A stretch of DNA of 64,000 nt from NCBI GenBank assembly GCA_051878835.1, contig JBJEKW010000081.1:3352-67351 (forward strand). The letters are read 5' to 3'. The position numbers were made by a program, and so were the translations under genes. This DNA comes from Atopobiaceae bacterium (GTDB lineage: Bacteria; Actinomycetota; Coriobacteriia; Coriobacteriales; Atopobiaceae). Of this stretch, positions 1 through 57,929 are shown piece by piece. The notes under the pieces were generated by a model. The model was not told the DNA's origin and made no database searches. It was given only the letters and a program-made list of their open reading frames with translations. Position 1 is the first letter of the stretch. Each line of letters begins with the position of its first letter.

Positions 1-267
1 TCTTGCATATTGACAAGATCAAGCAGCTTGTGCGGCACCTTACCTATAGAGGGATTGAGACCAAGCTCATGCCGATTCCTAATCCTATGCCGAACAGAGC
101 GGCACCTTACCTATAGAGGGATTGAGACCTCGCTTGGCTGTGACTTGTTACGCCGATAGTCAGCGTGCGGCACCTTACCTATAGAGGGATTGAGACGCGA
201 GGAGGTACATCGGACGGTCGAACACGCCTCTGCCAGCGGCACCTTATCTAAAAAGCGGTTGAAGCAC
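1..267 (+). CRISPR. Trailer end of a CRISPR array (3 intact repeats plus 1 degenerate terminal repeat); continues off-window to the left
   Basis: The 30-nt direct repeat GCGGCACCTTACCTATAGAGGGATTGAGAC occurs at 32-61, 99-128 and 167-196 (period 67-69 nt) with unique 37-39-nt spacers. A degenerate copy lies at 236-267 (GCGGCACCTTATCTAAAAAGCGGTTGAAGCAC). Positions 1-31 are a truncated spacer. The repeat 3' end ATTGAGAC resembles the canonical 8-nt crRNA 5' handle, which supports + strand transcription. Confidence 0.93.
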
Positions 268-421
268 TCTGAATAGCTCTTTCATTTTGCGTCTTCTCAC
301 GGGGGTGGCTACTCGCCCATGGAGGTGCTGATTTGCCATGTGCGCGGAAGTGTCGCTCCCTGCACTTTCGCCTGGTATACCGTTTCCGCACATTGAACCC
401 TCATGAGATTGGAGCCAGTGA

Positions 422-682
422 ATGTTCGTGGTCCTTTCATATGACGTGGGGAAGAAGCGCGTAAAGAAGGTAATGAGAACTTGCCGTAGATACCTCAATC
501 ACGTGCACGAGTCGGTCTTCCAGGGTAAGGTGACTGACCTGGAGTTAGCGCATCTGAAGAGTGATCTTGCCGAAGTGCTAGATACTCATAAGGACTCAGT
601 GCGAATATACGAGCTGGAGTCTCCTAGGTATCTGTATACCGAGGACCTTGGCAGGTCACGTGACCTTTCGAACATCATTTAG
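422..682 (+). CDS. cas2: CRISPR-associated endoribonuclease Cas2
   Basis: 86 aa with a Cas2-like N-terminus, MFVVLSYDVGKKRVKKV (hydrophobic strand ending in the conserved Asp). Its size and its position between the array and cas1 fit Cas2. Confidence 0.85.
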   Translation: MFVVLSYDVGKKRVKKVMRTCRRYLNHVHESVFQGKVTDLELAHLKSDLAEVLDTHKDSVRIYELESPRYLYTEDLGRSRDLSNII

Positions 683-720: not shown

Positions 721-2643
721 ATGCTTACCATCGAGGATGTCGTATCGACGGAAAACGTGCAGAAGGCGCTCAACCATTTTGCCGGGAAGCGCGACGGCGA
801 AGGGCCCGATGGGATGCGAGTGTCTGACCTGCCTAGTTATTGGAAGGCCAATGGGTCTAGGGTATGTCAACAACTGAGGGATTCTGAGTACCGTTTTGGT
901 GTGGTGAGCAAGTATGAGATTATTAGTGCCAAGGGGAAGCGTAGGTTCATCTCGTCCATTGACGTACTGGACCGCTTTGTGGAGCGTCTGTTACAGCAGG
1001 TGCTTGCCCCTGAGTTTGACCGCCTCTTTCTCCCAAACAGCTTTGCCTTTCAAGAGGGCAAGGGGGCACTTGATGCGGCAGTTGCTGCAAGGGACTATGT
1101 AAGCAGCGGATTCTCATGGCTATGCGAGGTTGACCTCAAGGACTACTTCGACTGGATCCCGCATAGCGGTCTTATGGCAATTCTCCGCAAGCATACCCAA
1201 GACCCCTCGCTTCTGCACCTACTAGAGAGCTGCATGCGGCGAGACGTGCTCCAATCCGGTGTTGTTTCGCAGCTGACAAGAGGCGTGCTGCAGGGATGTG
1301 CAGTCAGCCCCATATTTGCGAACCTGTACCTTCAGTCGCTAGACCAACTATTGCAGGATGACGGATGGTCGTGGCTGCGCTATGCCGACAACATCAACGT
1401 GTACACAAAGTCCGAAGAGGATGCGTATCTCGTCTACGAGGCACTGTCGGTTGTTCTTAGACGTGATTACCGGCTCAGCGTCAACATCAAGAAGAGTGGT
1501 GTGTTTCCCGCAATTTCACGGCGGGTCCTTGGCTATGACCTGGTACGTAGCGAAGGCGGTTCCATCAATGTGTGCCGGCATGACTACGACAGGATGGTGG
1601 AGTACGGTATTTGGCACAAGTCGGCGATTGTTGGGCAGCAAGATCTTGGTGACATACACATCGTGGAAGATGGGATCCTGAATCGTGAAGACTTCTCGAT
1701 ATTGTTTCAGGGCGATGATGTGCGTAGGCCAATTCCTGCAGAGGTTACGGACCAACTAAATATCTACGGCAACGTTTCCGTGACTCCTGCCGCCCTGTCA
1801 ACCATCACCTACTACAACATTCGTCTCGCTTATTGCGATAAATACGGGAACCTGATGGGGGTGTATGTTCCCGCAAAGCATGGTTCGCTCTCCACGACAT
1901 TCCTCAAGCAGGTGCAGCTGTACTGCGATGACGGTCGGAGGCTTGAGGTTGGGCGCTCTCTGGAGGATGCGGGCATTCATAACATGCGCTCTAACCTGCG
2001 CTATTACTACCACAAGTTCAACCGGCCTCTCCTAAGTAACACCGTGGAAGAGCTGACCACCATCTTGGAGCTTGTTTCGAATGCTGACTCCATGGGGGAG
2101 CTGTTAATCCTCGAGGCTCAAGCGCGCAAGCGCTACTACGCTTGCTTTAATGACATTCTGTTAGGCACCGGCTTTGACTTCTCTAGGAGGTCGCGTAGGC
2201 CGCCAAGAGATCCGGCCAACGCGCTTATCAGTTTTGGAAATACGCTTCTGTACAACAAGTTTCTCCAGCTCATTTGGAAGACCTCGCTCGACCCGAGAAT
2301 TGGCGTAATCCACTCGACCAACGGTCGCCTGTTCAGCCTCAATCTTGACTTTGCTGATGTATTTAAGCCAATCGTGGTTGACCGAGTCATATTTTCCCTT
2401 GTAAACAAGAGGACCATCTGTAGTGAGAGGGACTTTTGCAAAACCGATGAAGGTGGAACGTACCTGAACGAGAATGGCAAACGGGTCTTTATCCAAGCGC
2501 TTCAGGGCAAGCTGGCCTCATATCACACGGAGGGTAGTCGCAGAGTGTCCTATGGGCAGCTGATGAAAGAAGAAGTACGAAACTTCTACGGTTACGTGAC
2601 CAGGGGGACTGAATTTCTACCATACAAATACCCAAAGGGGTAG
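721..2643 (+). CDS. cas1: Reverse transcriptase-Cas1 fusion protein (RT-Cas1)
   Basis: 640 aa. The N-terminal half carries group-II-intron-like RT motifs: DLKDYFDWIPH, GVLQGCAVSPIFANLYL and RYADNINVY. The C-terminal half carries Cas1 motifs: LILEAQARKRYY, RRPPRDPANALISFGNTLLY and GVIHSTNGRLFSLNLDFADVFKP (His-x11-Asp-x2-Asp). Confidence 0.9.
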   Translation: MLTIEDVVSTENVQKALNHFAGKRDGEGPDGMRVSDLPSYWKANGSRVCQQLRDSEYRFGVVSKYEIISAKGKRRFISSIDVLDRFVERLLQQVLAPEFDRLFLPNSFAFQEGKGALDAAVAARDYVSSGFSWLCEVDLKDYFDWIPHSGLMAILRKHTQDPSLLHLLESCMRRDVLQSGVVSQLTRGVLQGCAVSPIFANLYLQSLDQLLQDDGWSWLRYADNINVYTKSEEDAYLVYEALSVVLRRDYRLSVNIKKSGVFPAISRRVLGYDLVRSEGGSINVCRHDYDRMVEYGIWHKSAIVGQQDLGDIHIVEDGILNREDFSILFQGDDVRRPIPAEVTDQLNIYGNVSVTPAALSTITYYNIRLAYCDKYGNLMGVYVPAKHGSLSTTFLKQVQLYCDDGRRLEVGRSLEDAGIHNMRSNLRYYYHKFNRPLLSNTVEELTTILELVSNADSMGELLILEAQARKRYYACFNDILLGTGFDFSRRSRRPPRDPANALISFGNTLLYNKFLQLIWKTSLDPRIGVIHSTNGRLFSLNLDFADVFKPIVVDRVIFSLVNKRTICSERDFCKTDEGGTYLNENGKRVFIQALQGKLASYHTEGSRRVSYGQLMKEEVRNFYGYVTRGTEFLPYKYPKG

Positions 2644-2676: not shown

Positions 2677-3429
2677 CTATCCCTGCCGTAAGGGGCGATA
2701 ATCGATGTCAAACATTCCGAATCCCTGGGTGTTTTTCGTCCCTAGCCCTGCGTAGTACAGAAGCTCCATGAGAGGTGGTTGGGCCTCCATTACGAAGGAG
2801 CCCAGCCATCCCGTGACGTAGATTCCCTTGTATGTTGTGACGCGCTTCTTGAGGGTGTTTGGCAGGGGTACAAGTTGAAGATTACCTGCATCTTGAATCC
2901 CAGCTGCCTCCATCTTTGACCGTGCATTTGTCTGGATAAGCTCGGAAAAGCCGTCGTCAAGTGGCGAGAAGTATGTTGTATGGCCGTCGGGTGTCGTTAG
3001 GTGGACGGTGACAGGGGAGATCATTCGGGCAACGCATGTAGTTGGAAAGATAAGTTTCTGTCTCTCCTCCAAACCAATGACAGAGAACCTCGCTGATGCG
3101 AGCCGAACTCTCATGTGCACGCGTAGTTGTTCTGCTATCTCGTCTATTACAGCATCGATGGGTGACCGTACCTCGATGCTAAACTGTCCTTGCAGAGTGA
3201 GTGTCTTGCGTGAGGGGTCTACGTTTGATGCCCCCTGTATTGGCCCAAATGTGAGCATGCGAAACTTGCGCCCCTGGGTAGTGCGATATCCCGTCTCATG
3301 AACTTGGGTGAAATGGTCCAGAAGACAGGCATATAGGGCACCTTGTATGTAATGGCCGTACGCAAGTGGAAGCTCTGTTTGTCCCTCGGAGTAGAGAGCG
3401 ATGCGCAACGCCTTCACGGCAGCCTCCAT
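2677..3429 (-). CDS. cas6: CRISPR repeat endoribonuclease Cas6
   Basis: 250 aa with the C-terminal glycine-rich RAMP loop YYAGLGTKNTQGFGMFDI typical of Cas6. It lies convergent with RT-cas1 and divergent from the cmr operon. Confidence 0.85.
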   Translation of the reverse strand: MEAAVKALRIALYSEGQTELPLAYGHYIQGALYACLLDHFTQVHETGYRTTQGRKFRMLTFGPIQGASNVDPSRKTLTLQGQFSIEVRSPIDAVIDEIAEQLRVHMRVRLASARFSVIGLEERQKLIFPTTCVARMISPVTVHLTTPDGHTTYFSPLDDGFSELIQTNARSKMEAAGIQDAGNLQLVPLPNTLKKRVTTYKGIYVTGWLGSFVMEAQPPLMELLYYAGLGTKNTQGFGMFDIDYRPLRQG

Positions 3430-3641: not shown

Positions 3642-4736
3642 ATGCGTATGGGCCTTTCCCTGGATAATGCAGTAGGCTACGACATAAGCCGCTATCGCCG
3701 CGAAGTTTCGCTCGAGCAGATAACTGGGCTGTTGCATTTTAAGGGCCATGACGAGGGTGCGTATCTGCGTCCCAGCAGTGTAAAGCCCCAATTGGACAGG
3801 TTCATCTTCTTGCGGGTGCCTGAGCAGGTGAAGGACGAGTGGCGAACTGGCACGGAGCACAAAAGTCTCTCATACAAGCTCGCGATTGCTCCTCGTGGAA
3901 GAGTCCAGCTGAAGCAGTGCTGGCCCGTTGAAAAGGCGCGGCTTCAAGGTAGGGGAAGAGGCCACTCGAACTCTGTTCTCGTGGACTATGTCCCCAAGTC
4001 GTACTTCGTGAACAGAATGGCTAAGAACGAGAACGTTGGCCTTGTGTATTGTCCTGTTGCCAAACTGGTTCTCGAGTCGATGTTTCCGGAGCTCCTAGAC
4101 GTTGTCGAAAGTGCCCTGCGCGCCTTTTTCCTCACTCATAACTTTGGTATTCGCGGTGGTAGAGGCAATGGTTCTTTCATCGTTCGCTGTGAACCAGGTG
4201 GTACGCGCGAAGAAGATGTTATTCGCAAGCACTGCCTGGGCTATGTGAAGCTCGAGCTCCCAAAGAGATATAGGACTGAAACATTGGAGAGCCGGCTGGT
4301 TCTTTCGAATTACGCCAGTGCTTGCATGGACCTTCTTAGGCACAGCATGGATCGCAAAGACAGGTGGCAGTTTGGCACCATCGACAGACGTGACTTCCCG
4401 GCCAGCGATGGGCTGGTAGAGCGAATCCCTTCTCCAATTTTGGTAAAAATTACGAACCAAGGCATCTACTTCGAATATCTAGGCTATCCAACTGCCTTCG
4501 CAAGCCAAGGCGGTGCCAAGTCTGCTTATAAGCGATTGCGTCCTGCGGGGGAGACTCCAAAGGACAATCTTCTTTCCCGTGCAACCCTACTCTTCAACGA
4601 TCTTTATCTGGACGAGCGAGCCAATGACCAGGTCTTTAATACGGCGTGGGACTATACGAACGATGTATTGGGACAAGATCTTGGGGACTTCGAATATCAC
4701 GAGGGCACGCCCTTGAAGGAAGGTGGTCTCCATTAG
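3642..4736 (+). CDS. cmr1: Type III-B RAMP subunit, Cmr1-like
   Basis: 364 aa and first gene of the cmr operon. It has the glycine-rich loop FGIRGGRGNGSF and the N-terminal LRPSSVKPQLDRFIFLRV, which resembles the RAMP R-x-S-x-KG-x-R-F-W motif. The call relies partly on canonical cmr1-cmr6 gene order. Confidence 0.6.
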   Translation: MRMGLSLDNAVGYDISRYRREVSLEQITGLLHFKGHDEGAYLRPSSVKPQLDRFIFLRVPEQVKDEWRTGTEHKSLSYKLAIAPRGRVQLKQCWPVEKARLQGRGRGHSNSVLVDYVPKSYFVNRMAKNENVGLVYCPVAKLVLESMFPELLDVVESALRAFFLTHNFGIRGGRGNGSFIVRCEPGGTREEDVIRKHCLGYVKLELPKRYRTETLESRLVLSNYASACMDLLRHSMDRKDRWQFGTIDRRDFPASDGLVERIPSPILVKITNQGIYFEYLGYPTAFASQGGAKSAYKRLRPAGETPKDNLLSRATLLFNDLYLDERANDQVFNTAWDYTNDVLGQDLGDFEYHEGTPLKEGGLH

Positions 4737-6507
4737 CACGTATGTTGGGGTGACGGTAGGCCCGATTGTATCTACCTTGGAGATGGCCTCAAAACCAGCC
4801 GGTCTCTGGTTCGCCAGTGGCATGTTCTCCTGGATTTCGTCTCGAATCTGCCATGGCATGCTAAGTAACGATCGGCTTAGAGACTGGAACATCAAGCCCA
4901 TCTCTCCTGCCTACAGCGATGATTTTTCCACTGTCTTCCGTGAGGATGACCCGAATGATCCCGGTGGGGCATTCTTGGACGGCGTTGGCCGTTGGAACGA
5001 TCATCTCTTCTTTGTCCTTGACTCCGAGAAGGTCGAGGAGGACAAGCTGGGGGAGGCTATGGATGGCGTGATTGCATCCGCTAAGCGCGATGTCGCGGGA
5101 GGAGTCCTGAGCGCGCTGCGCCAGACATCCTCCAACCAGCAAGCCCAGAATCCAGAAGCCCAGCAGGCGCTTTCCGATTACATCCAGATAGCCTGGATGT
5201 CTGCAGATGAGAGCCAGGTAGGAGACGAGAACTGCATTCTCGCGCTTAGCAAGTACCTTGATAGCCTTGAGCTTTGCCAGGGAATCCCCACCAACGATGA
5301 AGCTAACCCACTCTATGAGTTCCTTCTTGGCAGCAAGGATGACCCAGATCCACGGCCAAACGAGAACGTGAAGAACTGCTGGCTTGTCCCCGAGGGGTAT
5401 CGTGACGGAACGCTGGGCAAGTCAAACTTTCCGCTCTTTACCCGTAACGGCAGAATTCGCGACATCGAGCATATCGCCGGACGCGCGCGCAGGGGGATTG
5501 ACGCGCAATGGAAGCGCTACAGCTACTACGCCGTGGTGCAAGCAGATGGCGACAACATGACGAAGACCATCCAGACAGCACGGACGCCAGGGGAGACGCT
5601 GGAGTTCTCCGCCAAATGCCTTGCGTACTCTGGGGAGGCATCAAGGCTTATCGATTTGTACGGCGGCATGACAATCTATGCGGGGGGAGACGACCTGCTG
5701 TTCTTGGCCCCGCTGGAGGGAAGCTGCCCCGATGGTGGCACTATGAGTATCCTTGGGCTCTGCTCGCGCATTCAAGCTGCGTTCCAGCGAATCTTTGGGA
5801 AGGGGCAGCCAAACTCTCCACTTGCTGTCTCGTTTGGGATTAGCGTCGCGTACTACAAGTCCCCTCTTTACGAGTCGCTCAGGTCGGCGCAATACCTGCT
5901 ATTTGCCTGCAGCAAGCGTAACTCTTATGGGAAGCGCAGGATTACCCTTTCGCTCCAGAAGCACAGCGGCCAGTCCGTGTGCTTCTCCGTAGCCAGCGAG
6001 GCACAGCTCGAAGACGGCTCCCCCTCGCCCCTAGCACTGCTGGACACCCTCATCTGCAGCGCGCTTCCTAGGGGGCGGCCATTGGGATGTGGGCAGGCCG
6101 ATGCCGCACCTTTGGGCGAGGAGACTGATGACGAGCTAAGGTCCGTTCTCTATCGGCTGGGGGAGTTCGAGGGGCTGTTTGAGTCCGCAATGAGGATGGA
6201 GCATGACGGCGTTGCCGGCACCCGTGTCAGCGACCTGTACGACAACATGTTTGACGCGGCGGACCAGAAGCGCTTCGCCGGCTATCTGTCTGGCATACAG
6301 TCGCTGGGCCAGGCAATCGTTGCTTCAGACACAAAAGATAAGGCGGGAAATAGGTCCTGCTGGAGCCTAGCCGAGGGTCTCCCTTCCGGCCAGGCTGGCA
6401 CCCCGGGTGGCAACGGGAACGCATACTATGAGACTCAGGGGTACGTCAACGCACTTTGCTCCATGCTTAGGTTCGCAAAGCTTTACTCGGAGAGGGGCGA
6501 GGAGTGA
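4723..6507 (+). CDS. cas10: Cas10/Cmr2 large subunit, short form without an HD nuclease domain
   Basis: 594 aa. Both cyclase palm motifs are present: YYAVVQADGDNMTKTI and IYAGGDDLLFLAP (GGDD intact). The protein starts directly at the Cmr2-type GPIVSTLEMASKPAGLWFASGMFSWI motif, so no HD region precedes it. The start overlaps cmr1 by 14 nt. Confidence 0.88.
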   Translation: MVSISTYVGVTVGPIVSTLEMASKPAGLWFASGMFSWISSRICHGMLSNDRLRDWNIKPISPAYSDDFSTVFREDDPNDPGGAFLDGVGRWNDHLFFVLDSEKVEEDKLGEAMDGVIASAKRDVAGGVLSALRQTSSNQQAQNPEAQQALSDYIQIAWMSADESQVGDENCILALSKYLDSLELCQGIPTNDEANPLYEFLLGSKDDPDPRPNENVKNCWLVPEGYRDGTLGKSNFPLFTRNGRIRDIEHIAGRARRGIDAQWKRYSYYAVVQADGDNMTKTIQTARTPGETLEFSAKCLAYSGEASRLIDLYGGMTIYAGGDDLLFLAPLEGSCPDGGTMSILGLCSRIQAAFQRIFGKGQPNSPLAVSFGISVAYYKSPLYESLRSAQYLLFACSKRNSYGKRRITLSLQKHSGQSVCFSVASEAQLEDGSPSPLALLDTLICSALPRGRPLGCGQADAAPLGEETDDELRSVLYRLGEFEGLFESAMRMEHDGVAGTRVSDLYDNMFDAADQKRFAGYLSGIQSLGQAIVASDTKDKAGNRSCWSLAEGLPSGQAGTPGGNGNAYYETQGYVNALCSMLRFAKLYSERGEE

Positions 6508-7655
6508 TGAGCCAGTACCTGGTGACGTTTAGGCCCCTTGAGCCCTATTTTCTGGGTGGGGAACGAAATGCCCGCTTTGGGGACAGCACCATCTTCTCTC
6601 AGCCCTACTATATTCACTCGCTGAACGTGCCCTCTCAAACCACGCTGTTTGGCGCTCTGCGGTACCTGATCCTAGAGGCATCGGGAAGGCTGATTTCCAA
6701 CTGGGCAGACGCTGCCCAGAGGCAGCGCGCGGCAGAGGCGGTGGGCCCCTCGAGCTTCTCGTTTGAGAGGACCACCAGCTTTGGCGCTCTCAAATCCATA
6801 TCGCCAGCATTCCTCATCAACTGCTGCGCGTCTGCATGCACGGACATTACACAGCATGCCCTTGTGCCGGCGCCCATGAACGCGGTGGTTGGCGGTGACG
6901 GCGGGTTGGTTGGCCTGCTGAAGGTTGTGGAGCCTCCTGCGGGAGTGCACCTAAGCCGTGGCGGTCTCTACGCGACAGACTACAATGTCAAGAACGGCTA
7001 TTGCACGGGATGGCTTGACCTGGCCACTTGCAAGGTGCATGAATCTGGTGAGCTGTTCGCGGGCGTTACCCGCGTGGGTATCGACGCCTCCCGTCCCGAG
7101 AACCAGGATGATGCCTTCTTCAAGAAGGAGAGCAAGGTCCTCTCCCCACTCTTGCAAGATCGCGGTGGTGGGTTTGCGTGCTTCGCTAATATTGACATGG
7201 CTGCTGTTCCGGGGTTGGAAACCCTTTCCGAGCAAGGCGGCATAGTGTTCATGGGGCAGGACAAGTCAACCTTCTCTGTGGAGTTTACTCCCTGTTCCCA
7301 GAACGTCTCCTACCCGGTGCTCGCGCAGGGGACCGTGAGCTTACTGGAGGAGGCCCTCTCCGCCTCCTGCGAGGGTGGTACACCCGCTTGTTTCTGGTAC
7401 TCGCTGGGAGACTGCCTGGTGGAGCATAGCCCGAGGGGATTCTTCATCGTCGAAACGGATTACTTCCGTCACTTAGGCACCCACTACGAGAAGCGCTCGA
7501 GCTATCGGCAAGGGCTGTCCAAGTCCGGTCTCTATCGCATTGCGCGTGGAGGCTCTGTGTTCTATCAGGAACCCCGCTTGGTGGAAGAGGACAGGAAGAA
7601 GCGCTGTGCGGTTGTGGGCATGAACCAGCTGCTTCCTGTAAACGTGAAGGAGTGA
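6504..7655 (+). CDS. cmr3: Type III-B subunit Cmr3 (Cas5 family)
   Basis: 383 aa. The N-terminus YLVTFRPLEPYFLGGERNARFG matches the Cmr3-type 'P-x-D/E-P-x-F-F/L-x-G' start. There is a 4-nt overlap with cas10, and the gene sits in the canonical position. Confidence 0.7.
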   Translation: MMSQYLVTFRPLEPYFLGGERNARFGDSTIFSQPYYIHSLNVPSQTTLFGALRYLILEASGRLISNWADAAQRQRAAEAVGPSSFSFERTTSFGALKSISPAFLINCCASACTDITQHALVPAPMNAVVGGDGGLVGLLKVVEPPAGVHLSRGGLYATDYNVKNGYCTGWLDLATCKVHESGELFAGVTRVGIDASRPENQDDAFFKKESKVLSPLLQDRGGGFACFANIDMAAVPGLETLSEQGGIVFMGQDKSTFSVEFTPCSQNVSYPVLAQGTVSLLEEALSASCEGGTPACFWYSLGDCLVEHSPRGFFIVETDYFRHLGTHYEKRSSYRQGLSKSGLYRIARGGSVFYQEPRLVEEDRKKRCAVVGMNQLLPVNVKE

Positions 7656-8491
7656 CGACTGTGGATAACAAGTTTTACTACCTTAGCTGCCTGACGAATC
7701 TTCACGTGGGCAACGGCGCCGATAACTTTGGAATCATCGATCGCGAAGTCGAACGCGATTTCGTAACGGGGTATCCTACCATCCCATCCTCCGGCCTCAA
7801 GGGTGCCTTTCGCAAGTACTTTACGGAGGCCGGCGGGGCTGAGCTTGTGGACAGGCTCTTTGGGCCTTCCTCGGGCTCTGGTGACACCAGGCCAGGGTCA
7901 GTCAAATTCATCTCTGGCCAGCTTTTGTTTCGCCCCGTGAGGGCCTCAAAAGGCGCGTATGCGTGCTATCAGTGCACTACCATGACGACGCTACGAATGC
8001 TTGCTAGGGCACGCGGAGAGATTGCTAACGATGCGAGCATGCAGGGACTTCTCGCTGACTCTGGCCCCGAGCCGAAAACGTGCTACTTTGGCGAGGGCGA
8101 CGGGGGCGTAGAGGTCGAGGGCTTTGCGGCACCTTGTGCGGACGCGCACGAGGAACTTGGCAAGTGCGCAAAAGGCCTTCTGTCTGCCGCTGCTCCAGAC
8201 GCTGCTTCCAGGAAGCTCACGAGCGGTGTTGTTCTTCTCGGGGAGGATGATAACCGCGCGATTCCCCTTCCTGTCATCGCGCGCAATCAGCTTGACAATG
8301 GCATCAGCAAGAATCTCTGGTATGAGGAGTTTGTCCCTCATGACAGTATCTTCTGGTTTGCTGTACTTGGCCCCGAGGAGGACCTCGAGGCTTTCGACAA
8401 CGTCGTGGCTGGCAAGGTTGTGCAGATTGGAGGCAATGCCACGATAGGGCGTGGCCTCTGTCTTGTTGTTCCCTTCGGCCAGAGCATCTAG
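7652..8491 (+). CDS. cmr4: Type III-B backbone RNase subunit Cmr4 (Cas7 family)
   Basis: 279 aa with LTNLHVGNGADNFGIIDREVERDFVTGYPTIPSSGLKGAFR (catalytic-position Asp present) and the C-terminal QIGGNATIGRGLC glycine loop. Confidence 0.85.
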   Translation: MTTVDNKFYYLSCLTNLHVGNGADNFGIIDREVERDFVTGYPTIPSSGLKGAFRKYFTEAGGAELVDRLFGPSSGSGDTRPGSVKFISGQLLFRPVRASKGAYACYQCTTMTTLRMLARARGEIANDASMQGLLADSGPEPKTCYFGEGDGGVEVEGFAAPCADAHEELGKCAKGLLSAAAPDAASRKLTSGVVLLGEDDNRAIPLPVIARNQLDNGISKNLWYEEFVPHDSIFWFAVLGPEEDLEAFDNVVAGKVVQIGGNATIGRGLCLVVPFGQSI

Positions 8492-8502: not shown

Positions 8503-8958
8503 ATGTCAAATGCAAGAGTCGAGAGAATGATTCCGTCTGCCAGGGACGCAATCATCAAAGCTGGAATTTCGGAAGGCGGCAGCGTGAAGAAGGCTTTCCG
8601 GGGGCAGATCTCTACTTTCGGAGCCGCAATCACCATGGGTTCCCTGTTGCCTGCGGTTGCATTTTTTAGCGACCAGGGATCTGCAGAGGTTGACCGTACC
8701 AAGCTCATGAAGGCGATTATGCTCGTCCTGCAGAAGGAGGAGGGCCTCCTGGGCGATTTCGCGAAGAGGTACGACAAACTCCTGGACCTCTGCACGGAGG
8801 TATGCAATGTGCCCTATGCCGAGGGTGTTTGCGCAAACGAACTGAGCGCCCCGCAACTTCGTGAAGGCGTCATCGATGCTGCTATCGCAATTAAACTGGC
8901 CATGAATTACTTCAGGCTAGTCACCACGGATGGCGGCGAGGGGGCGAGCCGCTCGTGA
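8503..8958 (+). CDS. cmr5: Type III-B small subunit Cmr5 (Cas11)
   Basis: 151 aa, predicted all-helical, lying between cmr4 and cmr6. It has a Cmr5-like FGAAITMGSLLPAVAFF segment. Confidence 0.7.
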   Translation: MSNARVERMIPSARDAIIKAGISEGGSVKKAFRGQISTFGAAITMGSLLPAVAFFSDQGSAEVDRTKLMKAIMLVLQKEEGLLGDFAKRYDKLLDLCTEVCNVPYAEGVCANELSAPQLREGVIDAAIAIKLAMNYFRLVTTDGGEGASRS

Positions 8959-10001
8959 GCTATTCACACAACAATGGCGGCGGAGGCTATAGGGGCAACC
9001 ATGGCTACAAGGGCGGCCAAGGTAAGCCTCGAGGCAACCGCAATGGTGGAAGTCATCAAGGACCGGGCAGAAGATTTCAGGCTTCGCCCGTGCCGTTTCA
9101 GTCGAAGAACCTTTCATGGGCGTACTATGCCGAATACTACCAAGACAGGGCCGGCAATTGGCTGTCGAACAACTCTGATGGCAACGTGATTGAGGGTCGC
9201 AATCTTGGACTGCTCACGTGCGGGAGTGGGCTTCACAGCGATCTTGCAGCCGCAGTCTCTCATGACGAACCACTGTCGGGGGTTCCCGGATACGGCTCCT
9301 TCAGGCTCAAGACGGCGTATCAGGGGCTGCTTATGGGGACGGGCTACCTTCATGCCCACGGGTCCGAAGACGGTTCGGATAACAATAACGCCTCAGGTGC
9401 ATCCGCGTTTAAAGGCGAGATAGGGATGGGGTTCTCGTTCGACTATCCATCCGGACTTCCGTATCTGCCCGGCTCATCCGTGAAGGGTTCAATTAGATCG
9501 GTGTTTCCTTGGGGTGACTCGGAGTCAAAGGACCCCATGTTCTTGAACAAGTGCGGCATCGTTGGGGCACTGCTTGTAGAGACTTTTGGGCGCGATTCTA
9601 TGAGTCAAGCAACGGCAGCGTCCAACGTGAATGACATTGGGGCAAAGGATATTGTTGAACTGAGAAACGCACTGTTTGATAACGGGGTCACGTTTCTTGA
9701 TGCCTTCCCGTATCTCCCGCCCTGCGATGAGATTAGGGGTGGGCTGCTGGCAACTGACTACATAACCCCGCATCACCGGGGAAACAAGGACGTCTTTGGC
9801 AACCCCATGCCAATTCAGATTCTGAAAGTACGAGCCGGCGTTCAGTTTGAATTTCGCTTCATTCTGCCAGATCGTGTAGAGCTTTCATCTGGCGTCCTGC
9901 TCGATCATGATGATTTGCTTGCATTTCTAAGAACGACCATTATGTTCGTTGGTGTGGGCGCAAAAACCAGTACTGGATATGGTCGGCTAATTCAGCCATG
10001 A
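8955..10001 (+). CDS. cmr6: Type III-B RAMP subunit Cmr6 with a Gly/Arg-rich N-terminal tail
   Basis: 348 aa with YLPGSSVKGSIRSVF and the C-terminal FVGVGAKTSTGYGRL glycine-rich loop. The N-terminal ~45 aa are low complexity (NNGGGGYRGNHGYKGGQGKPRGNRNGGSHQGPGRR). Confidence 0.85.
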   Translation: MSYSHNNGGGGYRGNHGYKGGQGKPRGNRNGGSHQGPGRRFQASPVPFQSKNLSWAYYAEYYQDRAGNWLSNNSDGNVIEGRNLGLLTCGSGLHSDLAAAVSHDEPLSGVPGYGSFRLKTAYQGLLMGTGYLHAHGSEDGSDNNNASGASAFKGEIGMGFSFDYPSGLPYLPGSSVKGSIRSVFPWGDSESKDPMFLNKCGIVGALLVETFGRDSMSQATAASNVNDIGAKDIVELRNALFDNGVTFLDAFPYLPPCDEIRGGLLATDYITPHHRGNKDVFGNPMPIQILKVRAGVQFEFRFILPDRVELSSGVLLDHDDLLAFLRTTIMFVGVGAKTSTGYGRLIQP

Positions 10002-10029
10002 TTGCTGACAGGCCGAGGTACGGTGGGCG

Positions 10030-12021
10030 GTGGCTGGTGTTTGGCCTCGGCCACATCGCGGGATGGAGGACGCCGGGTTGGCAGTCAATGCGAATATCGA
10101 GGAGTTTAGTGCAGCAGACGAGCGTGTTAGCTTTCACACGTTCGTCTTTCCCTTTCGTTGGGTCGTGGACGGGAATCCAGGAATCCCAGGCGCTAAGGGC
10201 GGCTCGACCTCTGCCAAGGGCACGGGAATGGATACCCGCAGGGAGTTCGCCAAGTGTCTGAACGACCGGTTCAAGATGGTCGATGCCACATGGCTTGATT
10301 GCGATGGCAATGACGCCGGAGGTGACTGGGAGCAGGGGTATGCCGTTTATCAGTACTTCAACAATGCAGCAAGGCGCCTCATGACCTGCAACTCGTCAGA
10401 GGCCTCTGGCAAATTTGGCCTCGAGAGCGACGTGGTGTGGAACTACAGGTTTGTTCCTCCCAAGGGTACTGGCAAGCTCAGCTACTACATCTGCTGCGCT
10501 GGGGATTCAGAGAATCGCTGCGCCAACAGTGGTCAAGGTGCGTGTGCCTCGGGCGGGGAAAGAGATTGTTTGAGAAAGACGGAGTACTTTCTCCCTGTCC
10601 GAGCGATTTGGGTCAAGCTCTTCGATATGGGAATAGGGCTTCTGGTGTTCGAACTCGAGTACTGGGGCCACAAGCGGGTCACGTACCCGGCATGCGCGAG
10701 CCTAAAGTCGAACAATTCTTCCCAGCAGTGGGAGCGCACCCCATTTGAGGATGTAAACATTATCAACGAGCGGGGGAGGCGCGTTTTCCCTCCGTTCCTT
10801 GGCAAGGCTGTCAGCGAGAAGTCTGGAGGAAGGGGCCTGTCTGCCGATGCAATAGCGCTGGTGTGGGACAATGGGGAGTCGTGGGACTACTACTACGATG
10901 ACGACCTCGTCGAGAACAATACCTTCACAAAGATTAGTTTTCGCAAAGAGCACGACGGTTCATTTGATCCGTTGGTCCCTAACTTCGTGAGCTACTTTCT
11001 CACGGGTAGCTTTTGCGAGGATGGCAGGAAGACGGTCTTCACGGCTGACGTGTTCGATGGCGACGGCGAGCCGGATGGCGAGGTCTGCTCGACCGACGGC
11101 AAGGTACACTACGCCATTGATCCCATTATTGACGAGCGCATGTTCACGATGTGCTTTCTAGGGGACAAGGATTTCTCCGACCGAATAAAGGGTGGCGACT
11201 GTCGACAGGGTGCGGGAGATTATCCGTACCTGACGGACCGGGACGTGATGGAGGATCTGTACTGCTTTGGGTTTATCGACGAACATGGTAGCTGCAGCTG
11301 CCAGAACCGTGTGATGCTCAAAGACATGCTTCAGACGCATGTGTACGCCCGCTGGATAGATTACGGGACCGTCAACATCTCAAGCGAGTATTCATTCATG
11401 TGCCTGTCAAGCGGAATGCCGTCTCTTCTCACCAACCCGTTTCTGACGGAGTACCAGCAGATCATTTACATCGTGCTCGCGCAGCGGGCTTCTCTGCTTA
11501 GCCTTGAGAGCCTCATTAGCCAGTATGCCCTCGAAGCGCACAAGGACAAGGACGAGGAAGGAAAGGAATTCGAGAGTTTAGAGTACACTATGGGACTCAA
11601 GGTCCGGGGACTGCAACGTCGCCATATCTACTTCTCGAGCAGGTATCTGCTGCCCGAAATCACGTCGCAGCAACAGGGTATCGAGTTGTATGACATGCTC
11701 CTGGACACCATGCTGGTTGACAAGAGAAGCCAGCAGATTGACAAGCAAATCAACGACCTCTTTGATCTGAAGAACAACGAGTATGATCTCGACGAAAGCA
11801 GGGACAACCGGGCTCAGAATGCGGTCCTGTTTGTCATTGCATTGGCTGGGTTGATTAGCCTTGCGTGCGATTTGGCGGGCGCGCCCCTGGAAGGCGTGGT
11901 CAACGATGGGTGGTTCCTCCTGTTGTTTGTCTTCATCTTCGGCGCTCTCTACGGTTTAATTCGCAAATTTGGATATCACGTGAGTGATCTGGCCAAGTCG
12001 ATTAGAAATAGGTCGAGCTAG
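10030..12021 (+). CDS. Hypothetical membrane protein with CorA-like topology; candidate type III ancillary effector
   Basis: 663-aa ORF with a GTG start 28 nt after the cmr6 stop, preceded by GAGG, on the same strand. It has a large soluble N-terminal region and long helical segments (YQQIIYIVLAQRASLLSLESLISQ; QQIDKQINDLFDLKNNEYDLDES). There are exactly two C-terminal hydrophobic helices, AVLFVIALAGLISLACDLAG and WFLLLFVFIFGALYGLI, followed by basic RKF. The loop between them has no GMN motif (APLEGVVNDG). Confidence 0.6.
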   Translation: MAGVWPRPHRGMEDAGLAVNANIEEFSAADERVSFHTFVFPFRWVVDGNPGIPGAKGGSTSAKGTGMDTRREFAKCLNDRFKMVDATWLDCDGNDAGGDWEQGYAVYQYFNNAARRLMTCNSSEASGKFGLESDVVWNYRFVPPKGTGKLSYYICCAGDSENRCANSGQGACASGGERDCLRKTEYFLPVRAIWVKLFDMGIGLLVFELEYWGHKRVTYPACASLKSNNSSQQWERTPFEDVNIINERGRRVFPPFLGKAVSEKSGGRGLSADAIALVWDNGESWDYYYDDDLVENNTFTKISFRKEHDGSFDPLVPNFVSYFLTGSFCEDGRKTVFTADVFDGDGEPDGEVCSTDGKVHYAIDPIIDERMFTMCFLGDKDFSDRIKGGDCRQGAGDYPYLTDRDVMEDLYCFGFIDEHGSCSCQNRVMLKDMLQTHVYARWIDYGTVNISSEYSFMCLSSGMPSLLTNPFLTEYQQIIYIVLAQRASLLSLESLISQYALEAHKDKDEEGKEFESLEYTMGLKVRGLQRRHIYFSSRYLLPEITSQQQGIELYDMLLDTMLVDKRSQQIDKQINDLFDLKNNEYDLDESRDNRAQNAVLFVIALAGLISLACDLAGAPLEGVVNDGWFLLLFVFIFGALYGLIRKFGYHVSDLAKSIRNRSS

Positions 12022-12696
12022 AGAGGATTACCGTATTTGGTGAATGGTTGAGCGATGGGATTCCGACGCACGGATGCGATGACCAAAGAAATGCTTGATT
12101 CGAGAGTCACACGGAACAGCGCCGGCATCATCACGACCTCCTTCACCCCCGAGCATCCAGAAAAGGTCGCAGCTTTCGCTGTCTTTCTGAAAGAACCTCG
12201 GTTTGACCGGGTCAATGAGTGGACGAGCTCGTTCGAACATTGCTCTACTCGCTGGTGCTTACCCATGTGTGGCCATCAACGCAACCATGATTACCGGGAT
12301 AGGAAAACTGGACCGGAGAAACCGCAAGGCCTTTCTGCCTCGAGGCAACGAGTGTAATAGACATGCTTCGTCCTATTGATAAGCTTCTGAACTATCAGAA
12401 ACGAGGCTTCGTCAAGATTCCTCGGGAGCTCGATACAGAAGGACCCCCGGAATAAACTCGAACCATCCGGTCCGTGAAGTAGTCTCATATATATACCAAG
12501 AGGGGCGCGAGGGAATACCCTGAGAGCACCACTAGTAATGCGTGTCTCTATCTTGGCGGCCAGCGGTTCGCCTCAGTGGTGAGTTAACAGTTCTTGGGGT
12601 ATCCGTTGCTTTCGCGATGGCTGTCTACGGGACTCTCGCTGCACCTTCCTGTTCCTCATGCCGTCTCCTTTTTGCAAGTCACAGTTGCCGTCAATG

Positions 12697-12769
12697 CAAA
12701 ACCACCCACATGACGAGGCTTTGTACCTTTCGTACACAAAGTATCGTCACGTGGGTGGTTTTGTTTTTC
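12697..12769 (+). terminator. Long imperfect hairpin followed by a T-run (intrinsic-terminator-like, or the 3' end of an sRNA)
   Basis: CAAAACCACCCACATGACGA (12697-12716) pairs with TCGTCACGTGGGTGGTTTTG (12744-12763) with one mismatch. The inner part can also pair (CTTTGTAC with GTACacAAAG). The hairpin is followed directly by TTTTTCT. Confidence 0.5.
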
Positions 12770-12919
12770 TCGACGGTTACCTTGTGACCATGCCTTGGTG
12801 GAGGATGCGGTCACACTCTCATGACTACCGCGTTTACCTGGTGCTTTATGGAGCGTCCAAGAAACGCTTTGGCGCAAACTTTCCGGGATTACTCCTCGCG
12901 TAAAAACTATCGATATCTG

Positions 12920-12984
12920 GGATGCCCACCCGAGTGTAGTTTGTACATTCGACGCACAAAGTATTGCCGTGTGGGTGGTTTTGC
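12920..12984 (+). repeat. Second, degenerate copy of the 12697-12763 hairpin element
   Basis: GCACAAAGTATTGCCGTGTGGGTGGTTTTG (about 12954-12984) closely matches ACACAAAGTATCGTCACGTGGGTGGTTTTG (12734-12763). The upstream CCCACCCGAGTG...GTTTGTAC is a decayed left arm. Confidence 0.6.
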
Positions 12985-13305
12985 ACACTGGAAGGCTTGA
13001 GGAAGCCTGTTTTGGTGCGGCGTGCGGGCTGCTGGCATGTGGGCTGCCGGGGCTATTCTGCCACAGAAAAAGCCAGGACCGGCGAAATTGCTGACCCTGG
13101 CTTTGTCTTAAAACTCTCGCTCCGAAATAGTGAGAAGCACTGTTCGTGACGCGGTTCAAGAGGTGATTGCCCGCCGCGCGCGCTTTGAGAGCTCCTGCCT
13201 GCCACATGCGGTCCGAGAAGCGCCGTTCGAGCAGCGGCCCGCGAGCAGCGTCCCGCAAGAAACCCAGCCCGAGAACTCCTGCCCGAGAACCGTAGCCCTA
13301 GCTTC

Positions 13306-52451: not shown

Positions 52452-53377
52452 CGTCCCTCGATCTCCCTCTTTCTGCGGTCGCCGTCCGCCAGCAGCTGCT
52501 GCAGCCGGTCGGCGTCGCGCTGGTCGATGGCGTCCTTGTACTCCTGCAGGTGCCCTATGAGCGTGCCGATCTCGCGCGAGAGGTTGTCGGCGTCGTCCAG
52601 GAAAAGCTCGGTCCACATGGGGGCGTTCAGCCTGGCCACGCGCGTCAGGTCGCGGTAGGAGCCTGCCGAGAAGCCCTTGTGCACGCGGGCGGACGGGCTC
52701 TTTACGTAGGCGTTCGACACGACGTGCGCCAGCTGCGACGTGAAGGCGATGACCTCGTCGTGGTGCTCGGCGGTGGACACGGTGAACTGCCCGAACCCAC
52801 AGGGTGCCAGCAGGCGCTCGATGCGGTCCAGAAGGTCCAGCCGCTCCAGGTCGGTGACGTCTGCGGGAGGCACCATGACCAGGGGCGCGTTGTGGAACAT
52901 GTTCGCGCGCGAGTGCGCGAAGCCCGAGTACTGCGTGCCGGCCATGGGGTGGCAGCCCACGAAGTGCCAGGGCCTTCCCTCGGCTATCTGGAAGCACTGC
53001 TGGCAGATGACGCGCTTCACGCCCACGGTGTCGATGACTATGGCGCCGGGGGCCACGATGTCGGCCATCTGCTGCAGCCAGTCGATGCTGACCTGGGGGT
53101 AGCCCGCCAGGATGATGAGCTCGCAGGTGGGGATGGTCTCGTCGGTCAGCTCGCCGTCCACCGTGTCGATCATGGCCAGCTCCAGGGTGGAGCGGGTGCG
53201 GTTCCAGGCGTACACCTCGCGGCCGCCCTGGTGCAGGGCGCGCGCGAACGAGCCTCCCATGAGGCCCAGGCCCACGATGCCCACGCGTTCCGGCACGTAG
53301 GAGGGGTGCTCGGGGATGGTGGGCGAGCCGACGGAGGTGGGACGCTGGTCGGGTGCCGGCGTGGTGGGTGCTGCCAT
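52448..53377 (-). CDS. tyrA: Prephenate dehydrogenase
   Basis: The Rossmann segment VGIVGLGLMGGSFARAL and HPMAGTQYSG are characteristic of the TyrA family. Confidence 0.88.
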   Translation of the reverse strand: MAAPTTPAPDQRPTSVGSPTIPEHPSYVPERVGIVGLGLMGGSFARALHQGGREVYAWNRTRSTLELAMIDTVDGELTDETIPTCELIILAGYPQVSIDWLQQMADIVAPGAIVIDTVGVKRVICQQCFQIAEGRPWHFVGCHPMAGTQYSGFAHSRANMFHNAPLVMVPPADVTDLERLDLLDRIERLLAPCGFGQFTVSTAEHHDEVIAFTSQLAHVVSNAYVKSPSARVHKGFSAGSYRDLTRVARLNAPMWTELFLDDADNLSREIGTLIGHLQEYKDAIDQRDADRLQQLLADGDRRKREIEGR

Positions 53378-54397
53378 CTACTCCACCTCCGCCGTCACGG
53401 CCTGGCGGATGAGCGCGATGCGCTTCATGGCGTCGGCGAACTGCTGGGGCGTCAGCGCCTGCGCGCCGTCGGACCAGGCCTCGGAGGGCTTGTTGTGGAC
53501 CTCGATCTCCAGGCCGTCGGCGCCGGCGGCCGTCGCCGCGTAGGCGGCGGGGCGCACGTAGCGCGTGTAGCCCGTGGCGTGGCTGGGGTCGCCGATGACG
53601 GGCAGGTGGGACAGGTGGTGGATCACGGGGATGGCGTTCACGTCGAACGTGTTGCGGGTGCGCGTCTCGAACGTGCGGATGCCGCGCTCGCACAGGATGA
53701 CGTTGGGGTTGCCCTCGCTCATGATGTACTCGGCGCCCATCAGCAGCTCGTCGATGGTCTCGGACATGCCGCGCTTCAGCAGCACCGGGGCGTTGGTCTT
53801 TCCGACCTCCTTCAGAAGCGAGAAGTTCTGTGCGTTGCGCGCGCCGATCTGCATGACGTCGACGCCCTTGTTCACGAACAGCTCGACGTCGCGCGGGTCC
53901 ATGACCTCGGTGACCACGGGCATGTCCAGCTCGTGCGAGGCCTCCATCAGCAGGTCCAGGCCCTTCTCGCCCATGCCCTGGTAGGAGTAGGGGCTGGTAC
54001 GGGGCTTGTAGGCGCCGCCGCGCAGCATCGTGGCGCCGGCCTGCTTCACGGCGCGGGCTATGTCAAAGAGGTTCTTTCCCTCGACGGAGCAGGGGCCGGC
54101 GATTACCTGGAAGTGGCCTCCGCCCAACAGCACGCCGTGGCCGCAGTCGACCACCGTGTCCTCGGGGTGGAACTTGCGGTTGGCCTTCTTGAACGGCTCG
54201 CTCACGCGCTGAACGCGCTCGACTATGTCCATGGACTCCAGCAGGAAGGGGTCAATCTGCGTGGTGTCGCCGATGATGCCCACGATGGTCTCGTTGTCGC
54301 CCTGCGAGACGTTGGTCTTGAAGCCACGCCCCTCGATCCAGGCGATGAAGCTGTCCAGCTGCTCCTGGGTGGCCGAGTCCTTTACGACGGCTATCAT
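53378..54397 (-). CDS. 3-deoxy-7-phosphoheptulonate (DAHP) synthase, type I-beta with an N-terminal ferredoxin-like regulatory domain
   Basis: It starts at MIAVVKDSATQEQLDSFIAWIEGRGF (regulatory domain). The catalytic core has IAGPCSVEG, LRGGAYKPRTSPYSYQG and IGARNAQN. Confidence 0.9.
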   Translation of the reverse strand: MIAVVKDSATQEQLDSFIAWIEGRGFKTNVSQGDNETIVGIIGDTTQIDPFLLESMDIVERVQRVSEPFKKANRKFHPEDTVVDCGHGVLLGGGHFQVIAGPCSVEGKNLFDIARAVKQAGATMLRGGAYKPRTSPYSYQGMGEKGLDLLMEASHELDMPVVTEVMDPRDVELFVNKGVDVMQIGARNAQNFSLLKEVGKTNAPVLLKRGMSETIDELLMGAEYIMSEGNPNVILCERGIRTFETRTRNTFDVNAIPVIHHLSHLPVIGDPSHATGYTRYVRPAAYAATAAGADGLEIEVHNKPSEAWSDGAQALTPQQFADAMKRIALIRQAVTAEVE

Positions 54398-54676
54398 GGT
54401 GCCTCCTTGCCGGCGCTGCCGGCCGGTGGCCGGGCGCCAATCGTTGCATTCTGTCGAAATGCTACCACGCATGCCGTCGGGTTCCGGTTCCGTGATGCGT
54501 TTGATATGTCCACGAAACACAGCGCACAGACCGGGGCGGCGCGGCGCGCTAGAATGCCTAAGGTCGAAAGAGTTGCCAGGGTTCCAAGCCAAAATCAGGG
54601 CTCCAAACCAAAACAGGCCGTCAAACCAAAACTGGCCATCAAACCAATACCCCTCGAACCAAATCTAAGGAGAAGC

Positions 54677-57852: not shown

Positions 57853-57929
57853 GCCCCTATAGCTCAGTGGATTAGAGCGTTCGCCTCCGGAGCGAAAGGT
57901 CGTGGGTTCGAATCCCCCTGGGGGCACCA
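57853..57929 (+). tRNA. tRNA-Arg (anticodon CCG), CCA encoded
   Basis: The cloverleaf was read by hand. Acceptor GCCCCTA pairs with TGGGGGC, and the D arm is GCTC-AGTGGATTA-GAGC. The anticodon arm is TTCGC-CTCCGGA-GCGAA (CCG in the centre). The T arm has a TTCGAAT loop, discriminator A and 3' CCA. Confidence 0.9.

Follow-up and report, generated by a model that had tools for sequence, protein, structure and literature searches.

A divergent CRISPR-associated CorA-family membrane effector in a compact type III-B locus of an Atopobiaceae bacterium

We examined a stretch of 64,000 nucleotides (nt) of an Atopobiaceae bacterium (contig JBJEKW010000081.1 of assembly GCA_051878835.1, positions 3,352 to 67,351 of the forward strand), hereafter the window, and focused on the gene of a large membrane protein, here called corA. 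It stands at the end of a complete type III-B module that comprises a CRISPR array, cas2, a reverse transcriptase-cas1 (RT-cas1) fusion, cas6 and cmr1-6. A first-pass annotation of the same DNA had already placed corA at the end of the cmr operon, and this position was confirmed, as the upstream open reading frames (ORFs) matched Cas2 to Cmr6 and the defence module ends with corA. The absence of CARF, SAVED, nuclease and protease domains from the island, which that annotation had also pointed out, was borne out as well: effector profiles of these classes and of Csm6 from Pfam, PADLOC and NCBIfam had no match among the locus genes, and CARF, SAVED and Csm6 had none in the rest of the window. 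With no other effector domain found, the corA product is the sole ancillary effector of the locus, as had been proposed.

The gene lies in an uninterrupted ORF of 663 codons that runs from a GTG at position 10030 to a stop at 12021, 28 nt after the stop of cmr6 (which ends at 10001). This maximal ORF had been taken as the gene in the first-pass annotation, but the TTG at 10078 is the likelier start, giving a product of 647 amino acids (aa) and a gap of 76 nt to cmr6. We preferred the TTG because a GGAGG is found 8 nt upstream of it (10065-10069), because its product is identical to NCBI protein P0001 ('hypothetical protein', 647 aa, from a metagenome-assembled genome (MAG) of an Atopobiaceae bacterium) and is also given by the gene calls of two independent metagenome assemblies, and because it agrees with the N-termini and N-terminal length of the homologues. 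No sigma-70-like promoter was found between cmr6 and corA. The residue numbers of the protein given below follow the 663-aa frame that starts at GTG 10030.

Public records label the corA product only as a hypothetical protein, while here it is a member of a described effector family: it almost certainly belongs to the CRISPR-associated CorA effectors. The PADLOC CorA-like profile PDLC01043 matched it at E=9.3e-62 (residues 30-617 against positions 3-406 of the 457 of the profile), and a second CorA-like profile, PDLC01174, matched at E=8e-55. A search of 1.84 billion cluster representatives recovered 1,174 relatives at E<=0.001, 941 of them at E<=1e-10. The close, long sub-clade is rare among these, being represented by only three 50%-identity clusters of the 1.84 billion, and beyond its limits the score drops from 741 to 186 bits. 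Its other members (P0002-P0004) share 57-66% identity with the corA product and measure 650-704 aa when full length, and the homologue follows cmr6 directly in the three contigs of close relatives that could be read (L001, L002 and L003). The nearest relatives outside the sub-clade come mostly from Clostridia MAGs of gut and rumen and are typically 475-550 aa long. Of 43 related loci, 34 had cmr genes in one stretch with the CorA homologue; most of the remaining nine were short or cut contigs. The protein had been suspected to be a distant or new member of the class; it does belong there, as a clear rather than a doubtful member. It is new, rare and divergent within a family whose association with type III-B loci, signal and general architecture have already been published. 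It is the first member that we can point to in the Coriobacteriia (Actinomycetota), and it extends the family to that class.

All the hallmark motifs of the family are present in the corA product (SxHTFxFPF, YFNxAAR, INExGRRxFPPF, PIID[DE]RMF, CxN, AQRASLL and QQQGIELY). In particular, two pairs of residues correspond to the putative SAM-AMP site of the CorA of Bacteroides fragilis (Bfr), SAM being S-adenosylmethionine, according to the CorA-1 alignment of Chi et al. (Suppl. Fig. 10). In the B. fragilis protein, changing either of these interdomain pairs (R152/R153 or D219/D220) to alanines abolishes immunity, and these residues mark the proposed SAM-AMP site (PMC10600005). The corresponding arginines, R250 and R251, are invariant across 51 homologues; in the same set D368 is nearly invariant, and E369 represents a conservative change from Asp to Glu at a nearly invariant Asp column.

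The extra length of the sub-clade was resolved by alignment into about seven scattered insertions, some of which lengthen both stalk helices. We considered a fused enzyme as the source of the additional 150-200 aa and rejected it, since the alignment shows separate short insertions and no added domain. One of the insertions is a Cys-rich stretch in which the four cysteines of a CX7CX7CX7C pattern are kept in four out of four clade members, while the intervening residues vary. The scattered insertions and this Cys4 loop indicate which parts of the surface tolerate change and could aid the design of constructs for structural work. The first-pass annotation had described a soluble region of ~560 aa with Cys-rich inserts; the inserts YYICCAGDSENRCANSGQGACASGGERDC and GSCSCQNR are indeed there, but the soluble part is somewhat larger, at ~580-595 aa. 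The long form, the Cys4 loop and the minimal locus without a degrading enzyme (see below) are noteworthy features; nothing here shows a changed mechanism.

A Kyte-Doolittle scan returned exactly two hydrophobic segments in the corA product, at about residues 597-617 and 627-646. They are joined by the short acidic loop LACDLAGAPLEGVVNDGW, which holds APLEGVVNDG, and are followed by the basic cytoplasmic tail RKFGYHVSDLAKSIRNRSS. An AlphaFold2 (AF2) monomer model built from 51 homologues reached a predicted template-modelling score (pTM) of 0.78 and a mean predicted local distance difference test (pLDDT) of 75, with low values in the Cys-rich insert (pLDDT ~52-56). The model starts with a mixed alpha/beta N-terminal region and has very long stalk helices (449-492, 498-522 and 547-599 in model numbering); a hairpin of helices forms its end. 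Hydropathy and model thus agree with the stalk-like helices, the two C-terminal hydrophobic helices and the basic residues after them that had been read from the sequence. When the model was compared with the PDB by Foldseek, ranks 1-6 were all occupied by CorA of Thermotoga maritima (E 0.009-0.03, probability 0.44-0.87; alignments of about 320-337 columns in five of the six matches), followed by ZntB and the CorA of Campylobacter jejuni. The expected CorA match was therefore ranked first, but weakly. A model of the C-terminal stalk and transmembrane (TM) part alone was poor (pLDDT 61, pTM 0.29), and its Foldseek matches were generic coiled coils and uninformative.

To our knowledge, CRISPR-associated CorA is the only known receptor of SAM-AMP. 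The partner Cas10 of the window was compared with the SAM-AMP-making enzyme of B. fragilis. It has no HD domain, and its GGDD motif (residues 321-324, nt 5683-5694) is intact. A profile of 22 CorA-linked Cas10s aligned over its full length to the Cas10 of B. fragilis (PDB 9lq5_B, E=2.7e-100). By residue count on 9lq5_B, D70 of the B. fragilis enzyme falls in LFPDRY and E151 in NIIENQ, and their columns are the two acidic columns that were invariant in 30 out of 30 CorA-linked Cas10s. In the window Cas10 they correspond to D93 (nt 4999-5001) and E183 (nt 5269-5271), while in the same profile alignment the Cmr2 of Pyrococcus furiosus, which makes cyclic oligoadenylates (cOAs), carries Asn at the D column. 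Chi et al. identified D70 and E151 as the signature of the pocket that accepts SAM, and a D70N/E151R change led to the loss of SAM-AMP synthesis and the gain of pppApA synthesis (PMC10600005). In addition, the experimental structure of the ATP- and SAM-bound B. fragilis complex (9LQ8) has SAM's amino-acid portion near D70/E151. Since synthase and receptor both keep the residues that experiments have tied to SAM-AMP, signalling through SAM-AMP and CorA is the best reading of the locus. As a separate observation on this gene, public gene calls of an identical Cas10 (L047, 4808-6340) start ~84 codons late (510 instead of 594 aa); the late start cuts off a conserved N-terminal YVGVTVGPI and leaves D93 only a few residues from the start.

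Table 1. Features of the type III-B locus and of the corA product, with window coordinates.
Feature	Position	Strand	Basis or detail
CRISPR array, 30-nt repeat GCGGCACCTTACCTATAGAGGGATTGAGAC	32..271	+	3 good copies and a degenerate terminal copy (236-265); spacers 37-39 nt
cas2	422..682	+	TIGR01573 E=1.4e-7; PF09827 on identical protein
Reverse transcriptase-Cas1 fusion (adaptation)	721..2643	+	PF00078 E=6e-27; PF01867 E=2e-73
cas6	2677..3429	-	PF01881 E=7e-27; PADLOC Cas6b E=1.6e-50
cmr1	3642..4736	+	PADLOC Cmr1 E=1.8e-31
cas10/cmr2, predicted SAM-AMP synthase	4723..6507	+	PF22335 E=1.3e-23
cmr3	6504..7655	+	PF09700 E=9e-6; PADLOC Cmr3 E=6.6e-18
cmr4 (backbone RNase)	7652..8491	+	PADLOC Cmr4 E=3.3e-43
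cmr5	8503..8958	+	PADLOC Cmr5 E=5.2e-38
cmr6	8955..10001	+	PADLOC Cmr6 E=1.5e-25
CRISPR-associated CorA-family membrane effector	10078..12021	+	PADLOC CorA-like; 1174 family representatives; AF2 model; PDB fold matches
Cys-rich clade-specific insert, residues 155-180	10492..10569	+	C156/C164/C172/C180 (CX7CX7CX7C)
R250-R251 in INERGRRVFPPF, equivalent to Bfr CorA R152/R153, putative SAM-AMP site	10777..10782	+	alignment
D368-E369 in PIIDERMF, equivalent to Bfr CorA D219/D220	11131..11136	+	alignment
Transmembrane helix 1, residues about 597-617, no GMN at its end	11818..11880	+	hydropathy; model helices
Transmembrane helix 2, residues about 627-646	11908..11967	+	hydropathy; model helices
Hairpin with 28-nt arms, then T-run on the + strand, candidate terminator	12697..12763	.	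-49.3 kcal/mol, z=-8.6

The most unusual feature of the locus, which the first-pass annotation had missed, is that no signal-degrading enzyme is visible. CorA effectors are described as near-obligately paired with a SAM-AMP degrader, i.e. an NrN/DHH phosphodiesterase, a DEDD nuclease or a SAM-AMP lyase, sometimes as a fusion, and in Escherichia coli assays of the B. fragilis system a degrader (NrN or lyase) was strictly required for immunity (PMC10600005). Hidden Markov models of degraders were built from the related loci and broadened after Pfam and PADLOC had revealed divergent DEDDs (L007, L041) and a MYG1 protein (L015). In a six-frame scan of the window, the NrN, DEDD, MYG1 and lyase seeds gave a best E of 0.14, and the Clostridium botulinum lyase seed, whose sensitivity is limited as it was reconstructed from noisy text, matched nothing. 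These negatives cover the known classes and the 64-kb window, which starts inside the array. The 1.3 kb downstream of corA had no PDB match in any frame, and two small ORFs that might have been hidden partners there (12055-12357 on the forward strand, 100 aa, and 12656-13258 on the reverse strand) were rejected, since they had no family or PDB match, show no conservation in L001 and L002 and are missing from the gene calls of independent assemblies.

Of DEDD folds, the window has just one, a DEDDh match (PADLOC E=3.5e-30) at residues 723-875 of the ORF 52550-55513. We rejected it as a partner of the locus: it is a DnaQ-like exonuclease, lies 42 kb away and has no specific similarity to the CorA-linked DEDDs. 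The ORF itself (forward strand, 987 aa) deserves a remark, as its first ~690 codons have the appearance of a GC-rich antisense artefact. The last ~290 codons apparently hold the real gene (RNase_T E=3.6e-30, with a tail that looks BRCT-like by eye at the C-terminus), which probably has a housekeeping role.

Elsewhere in the family a degrader was recognised in 16 out of 41 loci of reference genomes: 11 had a DEDD (one fused to CorA), 4 had an NrN (one fused) and one had a MYG1. The fusions seen elsewhere are NrN-CorA in L032 and P0051 and DEDD-CorA in L012. Neither L001, for which 10 kb of downstream DNA could be read, nor L002 showed a degrader or a conserved neighbour, and at least a dozen well-covered related loci were without a recognised degrader. 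As for L015, its MYG1/UPF0160 phosphoesterase (464-1294; PF03690, E=3.5e-46) lies directly upstream of a CorA gene (1311-2789), and the locus carries two CorA paralogues (1311-2789 and 9096-10637) that flank the cmr operon. The MYG1-family phosphoesterase may represent a further class of SAM-AMP-degrading partner.

Putting these elements together, we propose that the crRNA-guided Cmr complex would bind a complementary foreign transcript, and that this binding would activate the palm/cyclase site of Cas10; the RT-Cas1 fusion suggests that spacers can be acquired from RNA. The donor pocket of Cas10 would hold ATP and its acidic acceptor pocket (D93, E183) SAM, and the predicted product would be SAM-AMP and not a cyclic oligoadenylate. 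The CorA-like protein would then bind SAM-AMP in its large cytoplasmic domain, at the putative R250/R251 and D368/E369 site, and the signal would travel along the stalk helices to the membrane domain, with its two helices, of what is probably a pentamer. The membrane would thereby be opened or perturbed, and the infected cell would arrest or die. This agrees with the first-pass suggestion of a nucleotide-signal-gated effector of CorA topology, possibly of the SAM-AMP/CorA class, to which profile, motifs, gene context, a weak fold match and the Cas10 signature all point. We consider the full chain, from target RNA through Cmr and Cas10-made SAM-AMP to the CorA membrane effector, to be probable. 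We do not hold it more firmly because loci with CARF nucleases keep the same Cas10 signature, because a degrader is absent here as in a proposed cyclic hexaadenylate (cA6)-sensing clade, and because pore activity is yet unshown for any family member (PMC10600005).

These three points weigh against the proposed chain, as do several others, and the first of them concerns the signal. In six related loci (L010, L012, L019, L025, L030 and L037) a ~410-aa protein matching CARF-PD-(D/E)xK (Card1/Can2-like) profiles lies beside CorA, and the five of these CARF loci whose Cas10 was readable all keep the D/E signature; therefore the signature may not exclude cOA synthesis. Proteins of this CARF type are normally sensors of cyclic tetraadenylate (cA4), and their presence raises the question of dual signalling or of a ligand other than cOA. 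The effector could then be activated by a cOA such as cA6 or cA4 instead of SAM-AMP. A locus with no SAM-AMP degrader, in which the seeds scored so poorly, would fit this alternative, as would a host in the Actinomycetota, where Hoikka et al. (PMC11229360) predict a degrader-less, cA6-sensing CorA subclass. We nevertheless judge it unlikely, since the window Cas10 is acidic at D93/E183, where the cOA-making P. furiosus Cmr2 has Asn and Arg, no Csm6-2 or CARF protein occurs in the locus or window, the effector has the RR and acidic motifs of the clade that binds SAM-AMP, and the locus is of type III-B. The missing degrader could also mean that the module is incomplete or decaying and confers no immunity, like CorA alone in the E. 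coli assays. The strict need for NrN or lyase in B. fragilis and the ~675 nt (12022-12696) with no recognisable gene after the corA stop might be read in this way, but none of the eleven genes is broken and their catalytic residues are in place, and the type III-D2 CorA system is functional in the absence of NrN, DEDD and lyase (PMC13294483). The degrader-less arrangement moreover recurs in the three other clade members, and its persistence at 57-66% identity implies purifying selection; in addition, the dozen or more further loci with no recognised degrader speak against decay too, leaving this a very slim prospect. It is conceivable, though doubtful, that the long Atopobiaceae-type clade forms a mechanistically distinct, self-sufficient sub-type of SAM-AMP/CorA system with no dedicated degrader, in which the conserved cytoplasmic CX7CX7CX7C loop (binding a metal or responding to redox state) and the longer stalks would supply the tuning or reset that falls to NrN, DEDD or lyase in other systems, or would allow a different Cas10 product to be sensed.

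The remaining points against the proposed chain concern the kinship with CorA and the output. No Pfam family reached E<=0.1 for the corA product, PF01544 (CorA) included, and NCBIfam gave one irrelevant match far below the cut-off (E=0.019); the profile comparison that the first-pass annotation had recommended thus succeeded with the CRISPR CorA-like profiles (E=9e-62 and 8e-55) and failed with PF01544. PDB sequence searches, by phmmer with the protein and with the family profile, returned noise or nothing, so that no solved structure was matched and none of a CRISPR-associated CorA turned up, and identity to the nearest relatives outside the sub-clade is only ~30-36%. At the fold level the similarity is weak, because no Foldseek match reached E<=0.001 and the TM-scores were 0.13-0.24, which agrees with the 'distant homology' of the literature. 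The corA product also lacks the GMN motif, as had been seen in the loop between its helices. This is normal for most of the family and not distinctive, because the only related loci to keep it are those of the NrN-linked clade of Bacteroidota (L026, L034 and L040, with GFWGMN). Finally, several Clostridia homologues (L005, L006, L008, L011, L014, L024 and the first copy of L015) end after a single C-terminal hydrophobic helix; not all of the family therefore has the CorA topology with two TM helices, and such one-TM members fit a CorA-type pore poorly. The missing GMN, the one-TM members, the weak fold similarity and the description of the mechanism as undetermined by the B. fragilis authors (PMC10600005) would all suit a SAM-AMP-driven output other than a gated CorA-like pore, such as membrane disruption through oligomerisation or a change of conformation, or the recruitment of another factor to the membrane or its regulation. 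Such an output seems to us improbable given the architecture of two TM helices and a stalk, the best fold matches to CorA and ZntB, and the loss of immunity upon truncation of the TM domain of B. fragilis CorA (PMC10600005). The two C-terminal TM helices and weak CorA fold match could also belong to an ordinary housekeeping divalent-cation transporter of the CorA type that neighbours the cmr operon by chance. This last idea is effectively refuted by the missing PF01544 match and GMN, a size twice the usual one, the strong CRISPR-specific profile match and the conserved operon position with cmr6.

Among the closest described systems is the III-B CorA of B. fragilis (clade CorA-1; PMC10600005), whose gene likewise comes last in, or lies adjacent to, a cmr1-6 operon with a Cas10 that lacks HD. 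The two CorA proteins share a cytoplasmic N-terminal domain, a stalk and C-terminal TM helices, as well as the motifs SYHxFxFPF, INxxGRRxxPPF (RR), PIID[DE]RMF (acidic), CxN, QRASxL and QxQGIE, and both partner Cas10s have D70/E151-type acidic residues and GGDD. Unlike the B. fragilis protein (about 490 aa), the one described here is ~155 aa longer (647-663 aa) owing to its ~seven scattered insertions, has no GMN at the end of TM1, where the B. fragilis clade has GFWGMN, and has no adjacent NrN phosphodiesterase. The hosts also differ (Actinomycetota here, Bacteroidota there), and identity to Bacteroides-type members is ~23-27% (tblastn). A second point of comparison, by description only, is the Actinomyces CorA clade without degraders (Hoikka et al. 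2024, PMC11229360), which likewise represents CorA-family effectors of Actinomycetota whose loci hold no NrN, DEDD or lyase. That clade is associated with or fused to the cA6-activated Csm6-2 and is predicted to sense cA6, whereas the present locus has no Csm6-2 or CARF and its Cas10 keeps the SAM signature. The III-D2 CorA of Gammaproteobacteria bacterium HyVt-522 also has no NrN, DEDD or lyase and needs Cas10-made signals of the SAM-AMP type (PMC13294483). It differs in its effector complex (Cas7x3, Cas7-5), in that SAM-AMP2 is also made, and in its requirement for a VapBC-like toxin-antitoxin module, which is the proposed degrader and has no counterpart here; CorA proteins of types III-B and III-D2 are only ~15% identical (PMC13294483).

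With canonical CorA and ZntB channels (e.g. T. maritima CorA, PDB 2bbj and 8tmc) the corA product shares the long stalk helix, the pair of C-terminal TM helices and the basic tail. It departs from them in lacking a Pfam CorA match and the GMN filter and in a cytoplasmic domain of about double the size, and the fold of the CRISPR CorA family is called unique in the literature (PMC10600005; PMC13294483). Cam1 and Csx23 are similar in that a cytoplasmic sensor of a Cas10-made nucleotide is fused to TM helices and the output is membrane depolarisation, but their folds are unrelated (a CARF or a tetrameric cA4 binder), their TM domains are N-terminal and their signal is cA4. The literature calls the mechanism of the CRISPR CorA proteins undetermined and leaves the need of the B. 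fragilis system for a degrader unexplained. Given its compact eleven-gene module, the signature residues in both synthase and receptor and no visible degrader, the Atopobiaceae locus is a natural test case of whether immunity through CorA can be had with no off-switch enzyme.

Around these core elements, the CRISPR array continues past the start of the window, and all the retrievable contigs break within it. At 236-265, on the cas2 side, the terminal repeat has degenerated to 64% identity, and the leader therefore probably lies at the far end of the array, outside the window. The 3' end of the repeat, ATTGAGAC, is similar to the usual 8-nt 5' tag of a crRNA. None of the three complete spacers matched any of 50,697 phage genomes. 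The catalytic Asp of Cmr4 is kept (D30 in FGIIDREVERD), as judged by comparing the translation with the mutagenesis primer for D27 of B. fragilis Cmr4.

Beyond the corA stop, a hairpin with arms 89% complementary and a loop of 11 nt, followed by TTTTGTTTTT, lies ~675 nt downstream and upstream of a convergent ykuD gene. One of its arms recurs 220 nt further on with 77% identity (partial second copy at 12940-12983). The hairpin could serve corA and ykuD as a bidirectional terminator, or be a small repeat element. It is followed by genes for an L,D-transpeptidase, a SpoU-type methylase, a class I aminoacyl-tRNA synthetase, a pseudouridine synthase, an IMP dehydrogenase and a PFL-like enzyme, i.e. 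ordinary chromosomal genes, from which we conclude that the defence module does not extend past corA. An Rfam scan of the window detected one tRNA gene only (57853-57926).

Some of the related loci carried further proteins next to CorA. In L033 a TIR-domain protein (11768-12937; PF13676, E=1.3e-20) comes immediately after CorA and has a homologue at 8672-9151 of L018, and in L027 a Zn-dependent phospholipase-C-like protein (11455-12168) follows CorA. These TIR and phospholipase-C-like proteins may be additional or alternative effectors. Finally, CorA follows large ORFs instead of cmr1-6 in two loci: ORFs of 1601 and 665 aa in L013 (CorA at 6885-8462), and ORFs of 1222 and 755 aa in L010 (CorA at 9803-11518). 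These large ORFs may encode fused-Cas7 effectors of type III-D2 or III-E.

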